NCBI GenBank assembly: GCA_001823065.1
Contig: MHTJ01000003.1
Coordinates: 253,283-317,282 of the forward strand
From: Candidatus Vogelbacteria bacterium RIFOXYD1_FULL_44_32
GTDB taxonomy: Bacteria; Patescibacteriota; Minisyncoccia; Phycocordibacterales; XYD1-FULL-46-19
Length of the DNA stretch: 64,000 bases
Direction: 5' to 3'
In this document: positions 6,815-26,622 of the stretch, one piece after another
Position numbering within the stretch: position 1 is the first letter of the stretch
How the letters are laid out: each line of letters opens with the position of its first letter
Position numbers and translations under genes: made by a program
The notes under the pieces: generated by a model
Database searches by the model: none
What the model was told of the DNA's origin: nothing
Seen by the model: only the letters and a program-made list of their open reading frames with translations

Positions 6815-7378
6815 GTGATGATTAAAAAGCCCTCAACAGATAGCCATAATAGCGATGACTTTACCTTTGAAGATGAGGAAGCCAGCGCTGATATTGCCAA
6901 AAAACTAAAACAGCTACGGGACAAACTAAAAAACAGCGAGGAAGAAAAGATGACCAACCTGGCCGGTTGGCAGAGAGCCCAAGCCGACTACTCTAATTTA
7001 AAAGCCAATAGTGAAAAAGAGCGACAGGTACTAGCGGAAATAATTAAAGCCGGGCTAATTGATGATTTTATTCCGCTGGCCGACAGCTTTGCTATGGCGA
7101 TGGCCAACCACGAGGCTTGGGAGGCCGTGCCGGCCAATTGGCGCAAAGGAGTTGAACATATTTACAGTCAATTAGGAAATATTTTAGCTAATCAAGGTGT
7201 AGAAGTTATTGACCCGATTGGTAAAATATTTGACCCGATTTGGCATGAGTCGGTTGGGCTAGTGACCACCACTAAACCAGACGAGGATCATATGGTTTTA
7301 GAAGTTATTAAGAAGGGTTATCGTTTAGGTGAGAGGATTATTCGCCCCGCGCAGGTCAAAATAGGGGAGTACAAGTAA
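6815..7378 (+). CDS. grpE: nucleotide exchange factor GrpE
   Basis: 187 aa. Coiled-coil N-terminus then a GrpE C-terminal beta-domain (LADSFAMAMAN...GVEVIDPIGKIFDPIWHESV). It sits immediately upstream of dnaK. Confidence 0.9.
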   Translation: MMIKKPSTDSHNSDDFTFEDEEASADIAKKLKQLRDKLKNSEEEKMTNLAGWQRAQADYSNLKANSEKERQVLAEIIKAGLIDDFIPLADSFAMAMANHEAWEAVPANWRKGVEHIYSQLGNILANQGVEVIDPIGKIFDPIWHESVGLVTTTKPDEDHMVLEVIKKGYRLGERIIRPAQVKIGEYK

Positions 7379-7430: not shown

Positions 7431-9320
7431 ATGGCAAAAATACTTGGCATTGATTTGGGAACTACCAACTCCGCAATGGCGTACGTGGAGGGTGGCCAAC
7501 CAAAAATTATCGAAAATAGCGAGGGGGCGCGAACGACGCCTTCGATTGTCGCTCAATCAAAAACCGGTGAACGCCTCGCCGGCCTTTTGGCCAAACGCCA
7601 AGCTGTGACCAACCCACAAAACACTATTTATGGGGTCAAGCGCCTTATGGGTCACAAATTTGAAGACCCCCATGTGCAAAAAGACAAGGGGCTGGTTTCT
7701 TATACTATTGAACGCTCCGACGATGGTGGGGTCAAAGTGGGTATGGGCGACAAAAAATACCGGCCCGAGGAAATTTCGGCCATGATCTTGTCTAAGTTAA
7801 AGCGTGATGCTGAAGCTCATCTCGGTGAAAAAATCGAGGAGGCGGTTATTACCGTGCCAGCTTATTTTGATGACTCACAACGCAAAGCCACTAAAGATGC
7901 CGGTGAAATCGCTGGTTTCAAGGTCCGCCGGATTATCAACGAACCTACTGCCGCCGCACTTGCCTACGGCCTCAACAAAAAGAAAGATGAAAAAGTTGTA
8001 GTTTATGACTTTGGGGGTGGGACTTTTGATGTATCAGTCCTTGATATTACTGGCGAAGGTGGTGAGCAATCGATCGAAGTAAAGTCAACCGACGGTGATT
8101 CGCATATGGGCGGTGAAGATATTGACCAAAAAATTATTGAATGGCTATTGCACGAATTTAAGGCCGAAACCGCTCTCGACATTTCCAAAGACCACCTCGC
8201 TTTACAACGACTCAAAGAAGCCGCCGAAAAAGCTAAACACGAGCTTTCTAGTGCCGTAGATTCGGAAATTAATATTCCCTTTATTACATCCGATGTCTCT
8301 GGCCCCCAGCATCTAGTCAAAAAAATGACCAGAGCCAAGCTCGAAGAAATCGCTGATGAATTTATCAAAAAATCAATTGAGATTACTAAGCGAGCGGTAG
8401 ACGCATCGGGCTATAAACTTGGTGATATCAACGAGATTATTTTAGTCGGTGGTCAAACACGGATGCCTGGTATTCAGGAGGCGGTGAAAAATCTGTTTGG
8501 CAAAGAGCCAAACCGCTCCATTAACCCCGACGAAGTGGTGGCGATTGGCGCCGCCGTGCAGGCTGGTATTTTCCAAGGTGATGTGAAAGATGTGCTTCTA
8601 CTTGATGTCACCCCGCTTTCTTTGGGGATTGAAACTCTCGGTGGAGTCGCCACTAAGCTGATTGACCGCAATACTACTATTCCCACCTCGCGCAGCCAGA
8701 CTTTCTCCACCGCCGCCGACAACCAGACTTCGGTCGAGATTCATATTGTCCAAGGCGAAAGGGAGATGGCCGCCGATAACAAGACATTGGGGCGCTTTAT
8801 TTTAGACGGTATTCCACCCTCACCTCGCGGTCTACCGCAAGTTGAGGTAAGCTTTGATATCGACGCCAATGGTATTTTGTCAGTCAAAGCCAAGGACAAA
8901 ACTTCTGGTAAAGAACAGTCTATTCGCATTGAGGCCCAATCCTCATTATCTAAAGAGGATATTGAAAAAATGAAGGCCGAGGCACAAACACATGCCGACG
9001 AAGATAAGAAAAAACGCGAAATTGTTGATGCTAAAAATACCGCCGAGCAGATGATTTACACCGCCGAAAAATCACTTCGTGATGCAGGAGATAAAATCAC
9101 AGCCGAAATAAAGGCGGAGGTTGAGGAAAAAATAAAAAATCTTCGTGAGGCCAAAGATAAAGAAGACTTAGAATTGATAAAAAATACCACCCAAGAACTT
9201 TCCACCGCGATGATGAAAATTGGCGAAGCGATGGCTAAAGCGGGTGAGGCCGATAAAACTGCGCCAGAAAACAAGGAGGGGGAGGTGCGGGAGGCGGAGA
9301 CGGAAGAGAAGAAAGATTGA
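7431..9320 (+). CDS. dnaK: molecular chaperone DnaK (Hsp70)
   Basis: 629 aa. Hsp70 signatures [20 protein letters not shown] and [15 protein letters not shown], plus an EEVD-like acidic C-terminus. Confidence 0.97.
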
Positions 9321-9356
9321 GTAAATTAAGGAGCGGGGCGACTATAATTTACCAAA

Positions 9357-9455
9357 CCCGCCCTGTTCTGATACTGACTGTCGGTGAACATTTCAAATAA
9401 AATTGCCGATCGCCAGTTGAGAGGAAGATTAAAGTGAGTATCAGAACAGGGCGGG
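9357..9455 (+). repeat. 19-bp perfect inverted repeat (CCCGCCCTGTTCTGATACT ... AGTATCAGAACAGGGCGGG) enclosing 61 nt in the dnaK-dnaJ spacer
   Basis: Read directly from the sequence. Arms at 9357-9375 and 9437-9455. Confidence 0.8.
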
Positions 9456-9496
9456 GTGAAGAAAAATATATTCACTCCATTCATTATTTTTCATTC

Positions 9497-10579
9497 ATGG
9501 CTAAAAACTATTACGAAATTTTAGGAATTGACAAGAAAGCGTCGAAAGACGATATTAAAAAACAGTTCCGTAAATTGGCCCATAAATATCACCCCGACAA
9601 GGAAGGGGGGGATGAAGCCAAGTTTAAGGAAATCAGCGAGGCTTACCAAACCCTCTCTGACGACAAAAAACGCTCCGAATACGATATGTATGGCCGAGCT
9701 TTTGCTGGTGGAGGCAACCCAGGAGCGGGCCAGGGTTTTAATGGTTTTGGTGCCGAGGGTTTTGATTTTTCCAATTTCGCTGGTGGCCAAGGTTTTGAGT
9801 TTGACCTCGGAGATATTTTTGGTGATATTTTTGGCGGTGGGAGGCAACAACAAAAGCGCGGTCGAGATATTTCTGTTGATATTCAAATTTCGTTTGAAGA
9901 ATCAATCTTTGGCGTCGAGCGAAAAATACTTATCAACAAAGTTGGCACCTGTGAAAGTTGTGCTGGTTCCGGCGCGGAAAAGGGTAGCAAAACTAAGACT
10001 TGTCCCACTTGCAACGGTAAAGGAAAAGTCCACGAAACTCGCCGGTCTTTTTTGGGTTCGGTTTCGGTCAACAAAATTTGTGAAGCCTGTCATGGTAAAG
10101 GTGAAATACCCGAAAAAGCTTGTGCAACCTGTCGGGGCGAAGGAGTGCGCAAAAAAAGTGAGGAAATTAAAATTCAAATTCCCTCTGGGATTGAGTCAGG
10201 TGAAATGATCCGCCTGTCTGGTAAAGGTGAGGCTGTACCTGGTGGCCAAACTGGTGATTTATATATCAAGGTTTATGTGGAGGCCCACAAAATCTGGAAG
10301 CGGGAGGGTGCTGATTTGCGGATGGATTTAAATGTTAAACTAACCGACGCTCTTTTGGGCGCCGAATATAATATTAAAACTTTAGAGGGCGGGGATTTAC
10401 AGATAAAAATTCCGGCGGGTATTTCTTTTGGCGAGATATTGCGGGTCAAAGAGAAAGGGGTACCCATCGACGGCAAACATCGGGGCAATCTGCTTATCCG
10501 CGTCATAATTAACACCCCCCAAAAACTTACCAAAAAGGCCCAGAAACTAGTGGAAGAGCTAAAGGAGGAAGGGGTGTAA
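9497..10579 (+). CDS. dnaJ: molecular chaperone DnaJ
   Basis: J-domain with HPD ([11 protein letters not shown]), a G/F-rich region, four CxxCxGxG zinc-finger repeats and a C-terminal domain. ATG at 9497 ([11 protein letters not shown]) is preferred over the ORF-track start at 9434. Confidence 0.95.
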
Positions 10580-10582
10580 AAG

Positions 10583-10609
10583 TTTGATTTTATTTTGATT
10601 CGGTATAAT
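10583..10609 (+). promoter_or_regulatory. putative sigma70-type promoter (TTGATT-N14-TATAAT) driving a non-coding transcript
   Basis: TATAAT at 10604-10609; TTGATT at 10584-10589 (short spacer). Immediately after the dnaJ stop. Confidence 0.4.
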
Positions 10610-10615
10610 ATATCG

Positions 10616-10945
10616 CCTAGGTGGATGTAGTTAGGTTATGTGGCCAGCTACAGGATATCCACCTTCTTGAGTTCTTTTTTGTGCGGAGGATTTGCTGTGG
10701 GTAATACTTCCTAGCTCCTAGGGCTTGCTTACCGGTTGGTAAGCCCGGATCACGACACAGGTCTTTTGCTACCTTGTGCGTGATCTATTTTAACCGGCGT
10801 CAAAGAGGGCGCATCAAGCCCCAGGGTAGTCTGTTGCTGATTTAAAGCCACCTCACCTCAATGAGCTCTGGACTACTTCAAAACAGTAACCACCCCACCA
10901 TCTTGCCCGAGAGGGAGGATTTGATTCCTCCCCCGGGCCTTTTTA
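10616..10945 (+). ncRNA. candidate structured non-coding RNA of unknown family (about 330 nt) ending in an intrinsic terminator
   Basis: No ORF of 60 aa or more on either strand. Multiple nested hairpins (GGTGGAT...ATCCACC, GCTTACCGGTTGGTAAGC, GATCACG...CGTGATC). Terminator GCCCGAGAGGGAGGA-TTTGA-TTCCTCCCCCGGGC + TTTTT at 10905-10945. Confidence 0.4.
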
Positions 10946-11108
10946 TTTGACAAAAAATTTAGGTATAGTATAGATATAATATGAATCAGTTTTATCACAA
11001 GCGAGATATGGCCACTCTATCCGTCATCGACAACGGCGATTTTTGCCTTTTTCCTAGCTGTGATAATTCTAAAACTATCTAAATAACCCCTCAATCCTGA
11101 TTTAGAAT

Positions 11109-11147
11109 CACCTCAGCTGGGCAAAAGCACCACTGAGGTGATTTTGT
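11109..11147 (+). terminator. intrinsic terminator (CACCTCAG ... CTGAGGTG + ATTTTGTT) just upstream of the GNAT gene
   Basis: 8-bp stem, 16-nt loop, T-run. Confidence 0.55.
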
Positions 11148-11178
11148 TGCAGTTTGGTCTTTGACAAGGAGATTAATC

Positions 11179-11727
11179 ATGGAAAGAGTAATGTGCTTGG
11201 TTGGAAAAGTGGTCTCGCTTGGGCTTTTAACGATTGATGACGTGGACACGCTCACTCGTTGGATAAATCAGGAGGAGATGAGGGAATATCTCTCCACCTA
11301 CCTGCCAATGTATGCGAGCCAAGAGAAAGAGTGGATCGAAAAGTTACCGAGCCGAATGCCAAATGATTTTGTCTTCGGAATCATCGATAACGAGACCAAA
11401 ACATTACTAGGCAACATCGGACTTCATCGGGTAAAGCAAAAGGACGGCCTAGCCCACGCTGGCATATTTATCGGCGATAGGCAAAACCGCAAAAAAGGGG
11501 TAGCAACCGAGGCGGGACAACTACTCTTGAAGTATGCCTTCGACACCCTGAACCTTCGCAAGGTGATACACGAAGCTTTTGCTCACAATGAGGCAAGTAT
11601 TGCCCTGGGTAAAAAGTTGGGAGCCAAACAAGAAGGGGTGATGAAAAGTCACCTCTTCATTAACGGTCGCTATGTCGATGTGGTGATCATGTCTTACTTC
11701 CGACCTGGTTGCGAACCAAAAGATTAG
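11179..11727 (+). CDS. GNAT-family N-acetyltransferase (RimJ/RimL-like)
   Basis: 182 aa from the ATG preceded by AAGGAG. GNAT acetyl-CoA motif region IGLHRV...GIFIGDRQNRKKGVATEAGQLLLKYAFDTLNLRKVIHEAFAHNEASIALGKKLGAKQEG. Confidence 0.85.
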   Translation: MERVMCLVGKVVSLGLLTIDDVDTLTRWINQEEMREYLSTYLPMYASQEKEWIEKLPSRMPNDFVFGIIDNETKTLLGNIGLHRVKQKDGLAHAGIFIGDRQNRKKGVATEAGQLLLKYAFDTLNLRKVIHEAFAHNEASIALGKKLGAKQEGVMKSHLFINGRYVDVVIMSYFRPGCEPKD

Positions 11728-11773
11728 AAAGCCATCTCTGCTACGCCATGGTTGCAAATGCCAGTGTCTCTGC

Positions 11774-11808
11774 GCCGCCTACCCCCACCAGGGAGAGGCG
11801 GCTTTTTT
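11774..11808 (+). terminator. intrinsic terminator (GCCGCCT-loop-AGGCGGC + TTTTTTG)
   Basis: Follows the GNAT stop. Confidence 0.7.
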
Positions 11809-11873
11809 GTTTCAAAATCTACGGTACAGTCAAAATAATTGATTTAAACCCCTTATTTAATATACTAAACTAT

Positions 11874-12872
11874 ATGGAAAAATTTTTATCGCCAGAAAAT
11901 GAACAAAACAATTTTGTCGAAACAAAACTAGATGCTGACCCCAAGCCTGAGTATGATGAAGATATCAATCCTGATGAGATATTTAGAAAAGCGGGAATAG
12001 AAATACAAGAAAATGAGGTTCGGGCAGAAATCATTCAAATAGTTGAGCAGTGGTTTGCCGAAAAAGAATCTCAATTTAAAGAAAAATTGACTGGCTTTGG
12101 CATGAGTGAAAAGGACATCAATCTTAAATTAAGTGTGACAAAAAGTATTTTATTTAACGAACTGCGCACAATCGGCCAATCGTTTAGTGATATAAAGAAA
12201 AAATTACCTGAGATAAAAGACCAATTAAAGAAAACGGCTGATGTAGAATCGGTATACAGCTGGCTGGAAGTGTCTTCACCACTGGCCCTTCTGATATTAT
12301 TTAAACGCAAACTAACAGGCGATATCAATGAGCAGGATAGGAAGATTTTAGCAATAATAGACCACCTTATTCACAATCAAGTGAAAGGGAGCTACAACTC
12401 AATTACAGAAGAGCTAACAATTTCATTTTTTAATGACAGCCCGTTTGAAGACTGGAACAAAACCTTGACCCATGAATTGACTCACTGCGGTCTTAGTCAC
12501 GCCGTACCAGAGGCAACAGATATTTCGTTTAATCAAAGCCTAAAAGCTCGAACTACAGAAAATAACAGAACCAATCAAGTGGCTATTAATAGTTATTTAC
12601 GATTACTACTGGCTATAGACGAATCGGCGGCCCACTTAGCCGAAGGTAGGTCGCCCTCCTATAAATCTTATGCCAATAAAATTAGCCCTCGGACTTTTGC
12701 AATGATTTATGAAGCGCTAAAAAATATTACTGACGGCAAAGATAAAAAAGAAGCCGACCAAATTTTTGTCAAAATCTATAAAGAAATCACTAGTCGATGG
12801 CACGAGGACATAACCCTAGAAGAAGTCGCCGGAATGATTATTGACATCAAAAACAATAAGATAATTCTATAG
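11874..12872 (+). CDS. hypothetical protein with an HExxH (HELTH) metallopeptidase-like motif
   Basis: 332 aa from ATG 11874 (MEKFLSPENEQ...). The longer ORF-track start at 11709 overlaps the upstream terminator. Motif LTHELTHCGLSH. No confident family assignment. Confidence 0.55.
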   Translation: MEKFLSPENEQNNFVETKLDADPKPEYDEDINPDEIFRKAGIEIQENEVRAEIIQIVEQWFAEKESQFKEKLTGFGMSEKDINLKLSVTKSILFNELRTIGQSFSDIKKKLPEIKDQLKKTADVESVYSWLEVSSPLALLILFKRKLTGDINEQDRKILAIIDHLIHNQVKGSYNSITEELTISFFNDSPFEDWNKTLTHELTHCGLSHAVPEATDISFNQSLKARTTENNRTNQVAINSYLRLLLAIDESAAHLAEGRSPSYKSYANKISPRTFAMIYEALKNITDGKDKKEADQIFVKIYKEITSRWHEDITLEEVAGMIIDIKNNKIIL

Positions 12873-12911
12873 GTTTTCAGATATTTGAATTCGCGGTATA
12901 ATCTAAAAACT

Positions 12912-13886
12912 ATGTCTACTAAAAAAATTCTTCTGTCGGGTATCAAACCCACCGGTCGGCCCCATATTGGTAATTATTTTGGGGCGATGAAGCAGTTTGT
13001 CGAGCTCCAGGACGCCCACGACAGCTTCTATATGATCGCCAACTATCATGGACTTAACTATATCCAAAATGGCCCAGAAATGGCCGATTTGACCCTAAAT
13101 CTGGCTATTGACTACCTAGCCGTCGGTCTTGACCCAGCTAAATCAGTTATTTTCAAACAATCCGATATTCCCGAGCATACCGAGTTGGCTTGGATTTTTG
13201 ACACTATTACCACGATGCCTTACCTAATGCGAGCGCATGCCTTTAAGGATGCGGAAGCTAAAAACAAGGAAATCAGCGTGGGCGCATTTAATTATCCCAT
13301 GCTAATGGCGGCCGACATTTTAATTTACGATACCGATGTCGTACCAGTGGGCCAAGATCAAAAACAGCATGTCGAATATGCCCGCGACACCGCCGAAAAA
13401 TTTAACCGCATTTTTGGTGAGACTTTTAAATTACCAGAGCCGAAAATTTTAGAAGATGTTGCCGTGGTACCCGGTCTCGACGGTCAGAAAATGTCTAAAA
13501 GTTATAACAATACCATTCCACTTTTTGCGGAGGACAATGAGATCCGCGCCTTGTGTATGAAAATAGTGACCGACTCTAAATCGCCCGACGAACCCAAAGA
13601 CCCAAGTACCGACAATATATTTGCCCTTCATAAATTATTTGCTCTCGATAATTTAGCCGAGATAGAAACTCGTTATCGCGAAGGTAAAATATCCTACAAG
13701 GAATCTAAAGAAATTTTAGCCGATAATATTATTAAATTTGTTACTCCACTACGAGAGAAAAGAAAAGCTATTGCCACTGACCCAGCTAAAGTCAAAGCGA
13801 TACTAGCCGAAGGCGGGGAAAAAGCCCGTGCTCGCGCTGTCGCCAAAATGAAAGACGTGAAAGAAAAAACTGGGCTTAGTTTCTAA
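12912..13886 (+). CDS. trpS: tryptophanyl-tRNA synthetase
   Basis: Class I HIGH-like motif (KPTGRPHIGN) and KMSKS (GQKMSKS). Length about 324 aa, typical of TrpRS. ATG at 12912 (MSTKKILLSGIKPTG). Confidence 0.92.
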   Translation: MSTKKILLSGIKPTGRPHIGNYFGAMKQFVELQDAHDSFYMIANYHGLNYIQNGPEMADLTLNLAIDYLAVGLDPAKSVIFKQSDIPEHTELAWIFDTITTMPYLMRAHAFKDAEAKNKEISVGAFNYPMLMAADILIYDTDVVPVGQDQKQHVEYARDTAEKFNRIFGETFKLPEPKILEDVAVVPGLDGQKMSKSYNNTIPLFAEDNEIRALCMKIVTDSKSPDEPKDPSTDNIFALHKLFALDNLAEIETRYREGKISYKESKEILADNIIKFVTPLREKRKAIATDPAKVKAILAEGGEKARARAVAKMKDVKEKTGLSF

Positions 13887-17054: not shown

Positions 17055-17058
17055 AGTA

Positions 17059-17086
17059 TTGACAAAAAACTCCTATCTGCTATAAT
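17059..17086 (+). promoter_or_regulatory. consensus sigma70 promoter TTGACA-N16-TATAAT
   Basis: TTGACA at 17059-17064 and TATAAT at 17081-17086, directly after the aspS stop. Confidence 0.7.
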
Positions 17087-17093
17087 ATTTGGT

Positions 17094-17297
17094 AGATGCT
17101 CATTCCTGCCTTGGGACCGTGGCCGAGAGCGGTTGGTAGAGTAGGACCTCCAAGCCTACCTTTACTCCAAACGCCCTAGTGCCGACCGTGATCGCCATGG
17201 TCCCAAGCAGCTGTCTCATAGGGGGCTATCATAATTTCATCTGCCCCCGTTTTATTCCCGAGGCCGACACACCCAGTGTTGGCCTCCTTTTTGTTTT
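17094..17297 (+). ncRNA. candidate small RNA (about 200 nt): long imperfect hairpin closed by an 18-bp stem, then two intrinsic terminators
   Basis: Closing stem CCTGCCTTGGGACCGTGG / CCATGGTCCCAAGCAG. Terminator 1 GGGGGC...GCCCCC + GTTTTATT (17221-17256). Terminator 2 GAGGCCGACA...TGTTGGCCTC + CTTTTTGTTTT (17260-17297). No coding potential. Confidence 0.5.
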
Positions 17298-17324
17298 AAA
17301 GGAAAAAAGTTACAATATAAAAAT

Positions 17325-23374: not shown

Positions 23375-24659
23375 TATCGTCACTCGCTTTGCCCCCAGCC
23401 CCACTGGGCTACTCCATGCCGGCAACTATCGCACGGCGGTTTTTTCCTATCTCTTTGCTCGCCAAAATGGTGGTAAATTTATTTTACGCATTGAGGATAC
23501 CGACCGCGAGCGGAGTAAACCAGAATACGAAGCCAATATTTTAGAATCGCTGGCTTGGCTGGGTTTAGATTTTGATGAAAAATATCGCCAATCGGAAAAT
23601 GCGCCGGTGCACCGTGAATATTTAGAAAAAATGATTGCCTCCGGCCACGCCTATATTTCTAAAGAAACTCCTGTTAAAGAAGGAGACCGGAGTGAGGTCA
23701 TCCGCTTTAAAAACCCCAACAAAGTCGTAACCTTTTCCGACCTTATTCGCGGTGAAATTTCCTTTGACACCACCGAGCTGAAAGACTTCGTGATTGCCAA
23801 GTCCCTAGACGAGCCGGTCTTTCACCTCGCGGTGGTGGTAGACGATTTTACCGAAGGGATGACCCATATTATTCGCGGGGAAGACCATATTTCCAATACT
23901 CCTAGGCAAATCCTCATCCAAGAGGCCATCGGGGCTCCACGGCCTATTTATGCCCATTTACCGCTAGTTTTGGCCCCTGATCGGTCTAAGCTGTCTAAAA
24001 GAAAGGGGGCCTTGGCCCTGACCGAGTACCGCGACCGCGGGTACCTACCCCAAACCCTTTTAAACTTTATGGCCATGCTCGGTTGGAATCCGGGTACCGA
24101 AGAAGAAGTTTTTACTCTGGACCAACTAATTGAAAAGTTTGATTTGGCTAAAGTTCAAAAATCAGGTGCCATTTTCAATGACGAAAAACTCTTGTGGTAC
24201 AACCGCGAGCATCTAAAAAAATTGTCACTCTCCGAGCTAACAAATATTGCCACCGAACGCATTCCCGATTTAGCCCAATTAAATAGCAACCAACTGAAAA
24301 TTTTGGTCCCAGTTATTTTCGAACGTTTAAGTACTTTAGCCGAGCTAGATGAAATGCGCGAGGGCGGGGAGTGGGACTACTTGTTCACCGCCCCCGCTGT
24401 TTCAAAAGAGCTTTTGGGGGAGACCAAATATTTAGCCGAAACGATCGCCCTGCTTGAGAATATTTCAGCCGATAAATTTGTTCCCGAAAAAATAAAAGAT
24501 GCTATTTGGGATTTTGCCACAGAGAAGGGGAGGAAGGAGGTGCTGTGGCCAATGCGCGTGGCCCTAACTGGGAAGGAAAAATCTCCCGACCCTTTTACTG
24601 TCGCCGCGATTTTAGGGAAGGAGGAAACCAAAACTCGACTTTTGGCTAAACTTGACTAA
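23364..24659 (+). CDS. gltX: glutamyl-tRNA synthetase
   Basis: ATG at 23364 (MKANIVTRFAPSPTGLLHAGNYRTAV) overlaps the murG end by 11 nt. HIGH-like HAGN and KMSKS-like KLSKRKG. Confidence 0.9.
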   Translation: MKANIVTRFAPSPTGLLHAGNYRTAVFSYLFARQNGGKFILRIEDTDRERSKPEYEANILESLAWLGLDFDEKYRQSENAPVHREYLEKMIASGHAYISKETPVKEGDRSEVIRFKNPNKVVTFSDLIRGEISFDTTELKDFVIAKSLDEPVFHLAVVVDDFTEGMTHIIRGEDHISNTPRQILIQEAIGAPRPIYAHLPLVLAPDRSKLSKRKGALALTEYRDRGYLPQTLLNFMAMLGWNPGTEEEVFTLDQLIEKFDLAKVQKSGAIFNDEKLLWYNREHLKKLSLSELTNIATERIPDLAQLNSNQLKILVPVIFERLSTLAELDEMREGGEWDYLFTAPAVSKELLGETKYLAETIALLENISADKFVPEKIKDAIWDFATEKGRKEVLWPMRVALTGKEKSPDPFTVAAILGKEETKTRLLAKLD

Positions 24660-24707
24660 GTGTAATATTTAATGCTATAATACAGAAAGAAAGGAGGTGA
24701 CACGGTA

Positions 24708-24851
24708 TGCCCAGACAGAACAAACTAAGGCTTAGCCCGCAGCTAGTCATTAAAGCATACGCTGAAGTGGCTAAAGAATTTGCTGATGCCACAAGAAGAA
24801 CCCTGCCGACACTCACGGAAACCAAAAAACCACCACCCATCCGCAAGTAAG
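24708..24851 (+). CDS. candidate small protein (47 aa, Lys/Pro-rich C-terminus)
   Basis: ATG preceded by the strongest Shine-Dalgarno in the window (AAAGGAGGTG, 7-nt spacer) and a TATAAT at 24677-24682. Below the ORF-track size cutoff. Confidence 0.35.
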
Positions 24852-24922
24852 ACCAGCTCGAGCTGGTCTTTAATTTTAATCACCCTTAATTATTGAACAC
24901 CGAGTGTTCAATAATTAAGGGG
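24852..24922. repeat. two consecutive perfect palindromes: GACCAGCTCGAGCTGGTC (24852-24869) and CCCTTAATTATTGAACAC-CGA-GTGTTCAATAATTAAGGG (24884-24922)
   Basis: Read directly from the sequence. The first is followed by TTTAATTTT (terminator-like). The second, with 18-bp arms, sits about 45 bp upstream of the -10 of the M23 peptidase gene. Confidence 0.8.
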
Positions 24923-26593: not shown

Positions 26594-26622
26594 TTGACAG
26601 CCAATATGGCCTCTGCTATAAT
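26594..26622 (+). promoter_or_regulatory. consensus sigma70 promoter TTGACA-N17-TATAAT
   Basis: TTGACA 26594-26599, TATAAT 26617-26622. Confidence 0.7.

Follow-up and report, generated by a model that had tools for sequence, protein, structure and literature searches.

The segment that begins directly after the dnaJ stop codon at position 10579 raises the question of what, if anything, it encodes. A sequence-only reading of the window (the whole 64-kb stretch of DNA analysed here) had described a promoter-like element followed by about 330 nt of hairpins without an ORF, a strong terminator, and a second short unit with a terminator of its own, and had offered a divergent housekeeping RNA or a novel small RNA (sRNA) as identities for the first unit. 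We asked which of these features hold, whether the element matches a known RNA family, and what relatives carry at the same position.

Positions 9000–12000 of the window are 100% identical in a 495-kb groundwater scaffold from ENA and in the Logan assembly of SRR2090173. By DnaJ protein sequence, the nearest relatives are Paceibacteria/Vogelbacteria-like MAGs of the Patescibacteria (CPR). The lineage is thinly sampled, with just five DnaJ clusters >75% identical in a protein search. The comparison set comprised 41 related dnaJ or GNAT loci, cited below by number where needed, plus the two source copies, and searches were run over up to 55 loci. DnaJ identity to the window is 91% for L001 and 89% for both L002 and L003, the nearest genomes overall lying at 85–91%. 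The longest dnaJ ORF in the window opens with a GTG at 9434 and encodes 381 aa; all close homologues are shorter (353–362 aa), and their alignment begins at residue 22, which makes the ATG at 9497 the probable start. Coordinates of all features are collected in Table 1.

Table 1. Features of the grpE–trpS region, in window coordinates
Feature	Position	Strand	Details
grpE	6815–7378	+	Local gene order
dnaK	7431–9320	+	Local gene order
dnaJ	9434–10579 (ORF)	+	Homologues begin at ATG 9497
dnaJ-to-GNAT gap		+	581 nt; contains the element and the 33-aa ORF unit
Promoter-like junction J1	10584–10610	+	TTGATT, 14 nt, TATAAT (10605–10610); expected transcription start ~10617
Noncoding body	10617–10904	+	~290 nt; hairpins A, C and D plus C-rich stretch
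Hairpin A	10619–10664	+	−20.5 kcal/mol
Hairpin C	10721–10746	+	−15.4 kcal/mol
Hairpin D	10748–10785	+	−18.1 kcal/mol
C-rich single-stranded stretch	~10888–10902	+	AACCACCCCACCAUC; within body
Intrinsic terminator of the element	10905–10948	+	GCCCG-AGA-GGGAGGA, loop TTTGAT, TCCTCCC-CC-GGGC, then CTTTTTATTT; −17.6 kcal/mol
Promoter of second unit	10947–10974	+	TTGACA (10947–10952), 16 nt, TATAGA (10969–10974); conserved in L003, L002, L005
33-aa ORF	10981–11082	+	MNQFYHKRDMATLSVIDNGDFCLFPSCDNSKTI; conserved directly upstream of GNAT
Terminator of 33-aa ORF unit	11105–11149	+	Hairpin and T-run; −24.8 kcal/mol
GNAT acetyltransferase	11179–11727	+	Pfam Acetyltransf_3
ORF without known family	11748–12872	+	374–387 aa; 387 aa if started at upstream TTG
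trpS promoter junction J3	12874–12914	+	TTTTCA, 17 nt, TATAAT, 9 nt, ATG 12912; from sequence
trpS	ATG at 12912	+	Local gene order

Anatomy of the segment downstream of dnaJ

Positions 10580–10945 are stopped in all six frames and contain no ORF longer than 41 aa, so the claim of about 330 nt without an ORF holds. The hairpins that had been claimed are also present, with three stable local hairpins at folding energies of −15.4 to −20.5 kcal/mol. At the distal end, a G+C-rich, bulged stem (GCCCGAGAGGGAGGA/TCCTCCCCCGGGC) closes on a TTTGAT loop, giving a hairpin at 10905–10938 of −17.6 kcal/mol. The T-run TTTTTATTT lies 3′ of this stem on the + strand only; hence, 10905–10948 is a + strand intrinsic terminator, with the G+C-rich hairpin and following U-tract by which Rho-independent terminators are recognised, and the strong terminator described at 10905–10945 is confirmed. 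The bulge in the stem explains why a simple terminator scan does not pick it up. No terminator precedes it downstream of grpE-dnaK-dnaJ: we found none between the dnaJ stop and 10905, either in the sequence or with the terminator scan. Transcription of the dnaK operon should therefore run on through the segment and end at the same terminator.

The promoter-like element, which we refer to as junction J1, holds up in part. Its −10 is a perfect TATAAT (10605–10610), but the best −35, TTGATT, stands at a spacing of 14 nt, and a sigma-70 scan reported no + strand promoter there, an omission explained by the 14-nt spacer. Well-defined noncoding or small-ORF units elsewhere in the genome have canonical promoters matching at 11 or 12 of 12 positions (for example at 17059, 24652 and 26594).

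We compared the folding of the element with shuffled sequences and with the genome background. The whole unit, terminator included, has a z-score of −4.4 (−4.7 for the reverse strand), and the body without its terminator scores −2.6. Across 42 sampled 300-nt windows of the genome, z-scores average −1.0 (sd 1.5) and are about −2.4 or below in seven. Because the body lies within ~1 sd of this background, with 7 of 42 windows comparable, the predicted structure is real but not exceptional. The fold is multibranched, and a long-range closing helix appears in the minimum-energy fold only, being absent from the centroid. The G+C content of the element is 47.5%, compared with 43.5% for the window and 33–47% for other noncoding gaps, which places it at the top of their range. 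In an RNA–RNA duplex scan against 71 translation-initiation regions, complementarity was no better than for shuffled RNA. The element contains neither an antisense promoter nor a convincing small hydrophobic ORF with a ribosome-binding site.

Miniature inverted-repeat elements (MITEs) are recognised by terminal inverted repeats, a target-site duplication and multiple genomic copies. The element has no terminal inverted repeats, we found no convincing att-like repeats around the island at 10580–12884, and there is no second copy within the 64-kb window, the part of the 495-kb scaffold that was covered. On these grounds, a MITE or other small non-autonomous mobile element is not supported.

Other compact units were seen in the window. 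The one at 17055–17300 (+) is a far stronger sRNA-like unit than the element: it has a 12/12 promoter (TTGACA, 16 nt, TATAAT, at 17059–17086) with a TG, a predicted transcript of ~200 nt, a long hairpin at 17106–17210, and the terminator GAGGCCGACACACCCAGTGTTGGCCTC followed by a T-run. Its folding z-score is −7.35 and its G+C content 47%; neither Rfam at E≤10 nor the fetched loci gave a match to it. At 24652–24870 (+), an 11/12 promoter (TTGACT, 18 nt, TATAAT), a 47-aa ORF (24707–24850) and the hairpin AAGACCAGCTCGAGCTGGTCTT form a compact small-gene unit. Another 12/12 canonical promoter lies at 26594–26622.

Known RNA families and related genomes

Over the whole window, Rfam models at gathering score detected only a tRNA. 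When filters were relaxed and E≤10 was allowed, an 801-nt query (10450–11250) gave only chance-level matches of miRNA or snoRNA type, and ARAGORN found two tRNAs and no tmRNA in the window. Thus, the search at relaxed thresholds for which the sequence-only reading had called returned no relevant family for the element, and the absence of RNase P and tmRNA signatures, judged by eye in that reading, is borne out by Rfam at E≤10, by ARAGORN and by motif inspection.

We considered individual families in turn. RNase P RNA is a universally conserved single-copy gene with a conserved P4 helix; the element has no covariance-model match to RF00010 or RF00011, both P4 strands (AGGAAAGUCC and ACAGAA..GGCUUA) are missing, and the element is absent at L001, L002 and L003 and unalignable in the fetched loci. 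For tmRNA (ssrA), which combines a tRNA-like domain with a CCA-proximal acceptor/T-arm and a tag-peptide reading frame, ARAGORN was negative and no Rfam tmRNA match appeared at E≤10. 6S RNA is a rod of ~150–200 nt with a large central bubble and is conserved among related species; the element is ~330 nt long, multibranched and not conserved, and has no 6S match at E≤10, a negative that is weak by itself given the uncertain sensitivity of Rfam for CPR 6S RNAs. In SRP RNA (4.5S or small SRP RNA), helix 8 bears a GNAR tetraloop, and its symmetric and asymmetric loops are conserved; no covariance-model match to this RNA appeared at E≤10. In T-box and riboswitch leaders, the terminator directly controls a downstream gene without a promoter of its own; we found no relevant Rfam cis-regulatory match, and the unit downstream of the element has its own conserved promoter. 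Finally, TIGR arrays, the Tas-associated tandem guide RNA arrays, consist of tandem repeat/stem-loop units with box C/D motifs and adjoin a Nop-domain Tas protein (PMC12045711). The element lacks tandem units, and the neighbouring proteins lack a Nop domain (Pfam at E≤1, PADLOC).

Searches of related genomes gave the same picture of absence. The element had no match by blastn (word size 7) or tblastx in the window or any fetched locus, and local alignment to the dnaJ-downstream spacers of relatives, with shuffle controls, revealed no significant similarity. In L003, the dnaJ stop is followed after 18 nt directly by the 33-aa ORF unit described below, in DNA 91.6% identical to window 10938–11160; in L001 and L002, an unrelated 120-nt hairpin element occupies the position. 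GNAT neighbourhoods offered a second route to homologues, and none of the six GNAT homologues has a similar element upstream. A metagenome scan with the 19-mer GGTAAGCCCGGATCACGAC produced one chance match with unrelated flanks; this negative is weak because the scan also missed the source contig. Two viral-contig scans and a distant-mode blastn search of phages and plasmids yielded no match. By sequence comparison, the element is a singleton that amounts to an indel against the nearest relatives, and this excludes a housekeeping RNA. The sequence-only reading had named lack of conservation of the dnaJ-downstream spacer as one half of what would count against an RNA gene, and on that half the comparison does count against one. 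No homologue of the element, in sequence or in structure, as would be expected of a trans-acting sRNA gene, was found in the genomes compared; hence, neither covariation nor conservation speaks for a function.

The 120-nt element of L001 (6094–6213) and L002 (3982–4101) has perfect 18-nt terminal inverted repeats, and the two copies look identical by eye, without a formal alignment. Its ~85-nt core recurs, again by eye, in L051 (3089–3225) in the opposite orientation and with a different, 25-nt inverted repeat. The co-varying stem, conserved core and flipped orientation suggest a hairpin RNA or an invertible element.

A 33-aa ORF upstream of the GNAT gene

The second short unit proved to be of a different kind. 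The terminator attributed to it is real, but the unit is not an RNA: it contains a conserved, predicted leaderless 33-aa ORF. The −10 of its promoter lies so close to the ATG, with its end 6 nt upstream, that transcription is expected to begin on the A of that codon, at 10981, giving a predicted leaderless mRNA. The ORF is identical at 32 of 33 residues in L003 and has the same or nearly the same length in relatives. At the protein level it reads MQQFYHSMIKNFATVVRDGAFCLSSSCDSSTTS in L002 and MIQCYHKSIKASMTVLTDGRFRLFSDCGSSNN in L005 and L047–49, and the pattern M-x-Q-[FC]-Y-H ... [DN]-G-x-F-x-L ... C-[DG]-x-S is kept in L003, L002 and L005/L047–49. Every copy has the same promoter geometry and a GNAT gene just downstream. 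The terminator shows a compensatory T/A to C/G change, from CACCTCAG/CTGAGGTG in the window to CACCCCAG/CTGGGGTG in L003 and L002. From the conserved arrangement, the 33-aa ORF and the RimJ/RimL-type GNAT acetyltransferase may form a small-protein/GNAT module.

The unit occupies 10947–11149 of the window, 6099–6319 of L003, 4134–4340 of L002 and 6820–7020 of L005, and gene callers left the ORF uncalled on the source contig. A 22-nt direct repeat of 82% identity has one copy in the body of the upstream element (CTGATTTAAAGCCACCTCACCT at 10837–10858) and the other in the terminator of the second unit, in the region of its 5′ arm (CTGATTTAGAATCACCTCAGCT at 11097–11118); the significance of the repeat is borderline, about 10 of 500 shuffles doing as well.

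The dnaJ–trpS slot and the nature of the element

The backbone grpE-dnaK-dnaJ-[variable]-trpS-ABC transporter is conserved, whereas what lies between dnaJ and trpS is different in nearly all genomes compared. Six loci (L004, L006, L007, L050, L051 and L053) have a canonical promoter (TTGACA/T, 16–17 nt, TAnAAT) 3–13 nt past the dnaJ stop, then a 150–230-nt body with a long closing helix and a strong terminator; trpS comes next, behind a TATAAT of its own at the distance expected for a leaderless mRNA. None of these cassettes matches Rfam, and at gathering score the window and 11 related loci returned only a tRNA. As far as we can tell, the cassettes have not been described before. L006 and L050, whose DnaJ proteins are 99% identical, are 97.8% identical in DNA through dnaJ and 96.6% from the terminator onward, but their ~235-nt RNA-like bodies (L006 6071–6302, L050 3071–3310) are unalignable, a clean, allelic cassette replacement. 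L007 (6105–6286) and L053 (3101–3281), with DnaJ 96% identical, share a homologous ~180-nt body (82.5% identical) in which both an internal helix and the terminator show compensatory changes; at 88% column identity, two such sequences would lend a covariance model next to no structural power. By these substitution patterns, at least one slot RNA is under structural constraint. The L007/L053 unit may also contain a conserved mini-ORF, MEGSFEISG or MEGESFRIRG.

In other genomes the slot holds small ORFs or the 33-aa ORF/GNAT module. The window has the largest insert of all, and its ~330–345-nt element and its 374–387-aa ORF were seen nowhere else. That ORF has no counterpart in any relative and no family in Pfam or PADLOC; like the element it is strain-specific, and it contains an HExxH-like motif (HELTH). 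The ORF was considered as a candidate RNA-associated partner of the element, a role for which neither database gave a sign, and a TIGR-Tas system was rejected. The element resembles the cassettes of relatives in lying directly after the dnaJ stop, in consisting of a promoter or promoter-like junction, a structured body (150–330 nt across the set) and a strong terminator, in preceding an independently promoted leaderless gene, and in combining high turnover between genomes with the absence of an Rfam family. It differs from them in its putative promoter (TTGATT-14-TATAAT rather than TTGACA-16/17-TAnAAT), in its greater length (~330 nt), in having no sequence similarity to any of them, and in lacking the long-range closing helix in its centroid fold.

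The trpS promoter junction J3 forms the right-hand conserved edge of the slot and is kept upstream of trpS in L004 and L001 (GGTATAATCTAAAAACTATG). The 5′ end of the element, TTTTATTTTGATTCGGTATAATATA, aligns with the trpS junction of the window, TATTTGAATTCGCGGTATAATCTA (12881–12905), and with that of L004; 8–9 of 1000 shuffles score as well as J1 does against the trpS junction (p ~0.008). In addition, the terminator tail of the element, together with the promoter of the 33-aa ORF, weakly resembles the terminator/trpS-promoter junction of L004 (27 of 1000 shuffles). These likenesses suggest that cassettes were joined at terminator/promoter junctions. Since J1 resembles the trpS promoter, which likewise has no canonical −35, we infer that its TATAAT could serve as a promoter no less plausibly than that of trpS.

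We judge the chances to be about even that 10580–10948 is a strain-specific noncoding cassette in a hypervariable dnaJ–trpS slot. J1 would be an apparent copy of the lineage's leaderless trpS-type promoter. Polymerase leaving grpE-dnaK-dnaJ would meet no terminator and read into the body, possibly joined by polymerase starting at the TATAAT (~10617); both streams would transcribe the body and stop at 10905–10948. The product would be a long structured dnaJ 3′ UTR, a discrete orphan RNA of ~330 nt, or both, and the terminator would also end the dnaK operon and insulate the leaderless 33-aa ORF/GNAT unit. What the sequence shows is the anatomy of the segment, its absence from relatives and its lack of a match to known RNA families; its transcription, like any function of a transcript in trans, is inferred. 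Of the proposal of a novel sRNA, the plausible −10, the real terminator, the raised G+C content and the genuine-looking RNA cassettes that relatives carry in the slot survive, but the expected conservation does not; the element is at best an orphan sRNA in a fast-changing spot of the genome. We count against the cassette reading that the 14-nt spacing is poor for sigma-70, that the z-score is near background and that the reverse strand folds equally well.

The chief competitor, which we regard as possible though doubtful, is that the element is a non-functional recombination scar left by repeated cassette exchange, in which only the final terminator works and any transcript is a by-product. 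This would account for a singleton without conservation, for the wholesale replacement of the slot between near-identical genomes and for a structure z-score near background; hairpins A and D are each followed by a U-rich stretch (UUCUUGAGUUCUUUUUUG and CUAUUUUAA), like decayed terminators, and junction motifs repeat at 10589–10612, 10940–10975 and 12874–12905. However, the G+C content exceeds that of other noncoding DNA in this AT-leaning genome, which is unexpected of old neutral sequence and fits recent acquisition; the hairpin stems are intact and near-perfect, and relatives keep real transcription units in the same slot. A bolder reading, in which the slot is a dedicated exchange site for accessory RNA genes and the element one functional allele, seems to us unlikely. 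Under it, independently transcribed, structured RNAs of 150–330 nt may be swapped wholesale between otherwise near-identical genomes, and the element may be, for instance, an RNA by which an episymbiotic bacterium counters a toxin, defends itself or interacts with its host.

Three further explanations are less probable still. It is improbable that the element is a decayed tandem duplicate of the 33-aa ORF unit that lost the ORF and gained extra hairpins: the two units share short matches in the same order (TTCGGTATAATATA/TTAGGTATAGTATA, ATGTGGCCA/ATATGGCCA, and TTCCTAGCT in both) as well as the 22-nt, 82% match between 10837–10858 and 11097–11118, and a gap-tolerant local alignment is better than 99.0–99.75% of shuffles, p-values that are optimistic because several scoring schemes were tried; but global alignment is not significant, an nhmmer profile of the second unit built from four genomes misses the element even at E≤100 in the window, and no ORF remnant is recognisable. 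A cis-acting leader, attenuator- or riboswitch-like, that steers read-through, coming from dnaJ or starting at the TATAAT, into the 33-aa ORF/GNAT unit via 10905–10948 is highly improbable. The terminator of the structured region does lie 35 nt before the next start codon, and GGAGGATTTG occurs both at 10685–10694 and in the 5′ arm of the terminator (10914–10923), so that the upstream copy could compete for the 3′ arm. However, a conserved promoter of its own precedes the downstream unit, which in L003, L002 and L005 works in the absence of the element; no riboswitch or T-box model matches at E≤10, and the element is not conserved. The divergent housekeeping RNA proposed by the sequence-only reading (RNase P RNA, tmRNA, 6S or SRP RNA, too divergent for the models) we hold to be next to impossible. 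At ~330 nt, the element is about as long as an RNase P RNA or a tmRNA can be, the 64-kb window has no annotated RNA of these kinds, and CPR genomes often carry divergent RNAs; but no model matches at E≤10, ARAGORN is negative, and the element is missing both from the locus in genomes whose DnaJ is 85–91% identical and from everywhere else searched. Because recognisable conservation would be expected at that distance, a housekeeping RNA is effectively refuted.

A strain-specific noncoding cassette would have counterparts in other bacteria. In enterobacteria, variable intergenic regions harbour orphan sRNA genes that are strain-specific, as well as type I toxin-antitoxin loci; one example is the hokC/sokC locus downstream of dnaJ in E. 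coli K-12. The element is like such loci in being small and structured, in varying by presence and absence, in having its own terminator and in lying beside housekeeping genes. Unlike hokC/sokC-type loci, it has no hydrophobic small ORF with a ribosome-binding site, no antisense promoter, no paralogues and no homology to them. Another general bacterial class consists of sRNAs derived from 3′ UTRs and of long, structured 3′ UTRs reaching to the operon terminator; such sRNAs usually have a conserved seed beside the terminator. The element resembles them in that no terminator intervenes between the dnaJ stop and 10905, and differs in that nothing is conserved and no target is supported. Orphan noncoding units bounded by a terminator are a known kind, to which the element adds one more.

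Our analysis thus removes a false lead, in that the element is not a divergent RNase P RNA, tmRNA or 6S RNA. It also changes how the neighbouring unit should be annotated: as a conserved gene for 33 aa, predicted to be leaderless, and not as an RNA. As a single locus the element carries little weight, and the hypervariable cassette slot is of more interest. In a group of reduced CPR genomes whose intergenic spacers are short, it repeatedly contains noncoding cassettes bounded by promoter and terminator. If expressed, these cassettes would supply RNA diversity at the level of strains, in organisms with scarcely charted regulatory RNAs.
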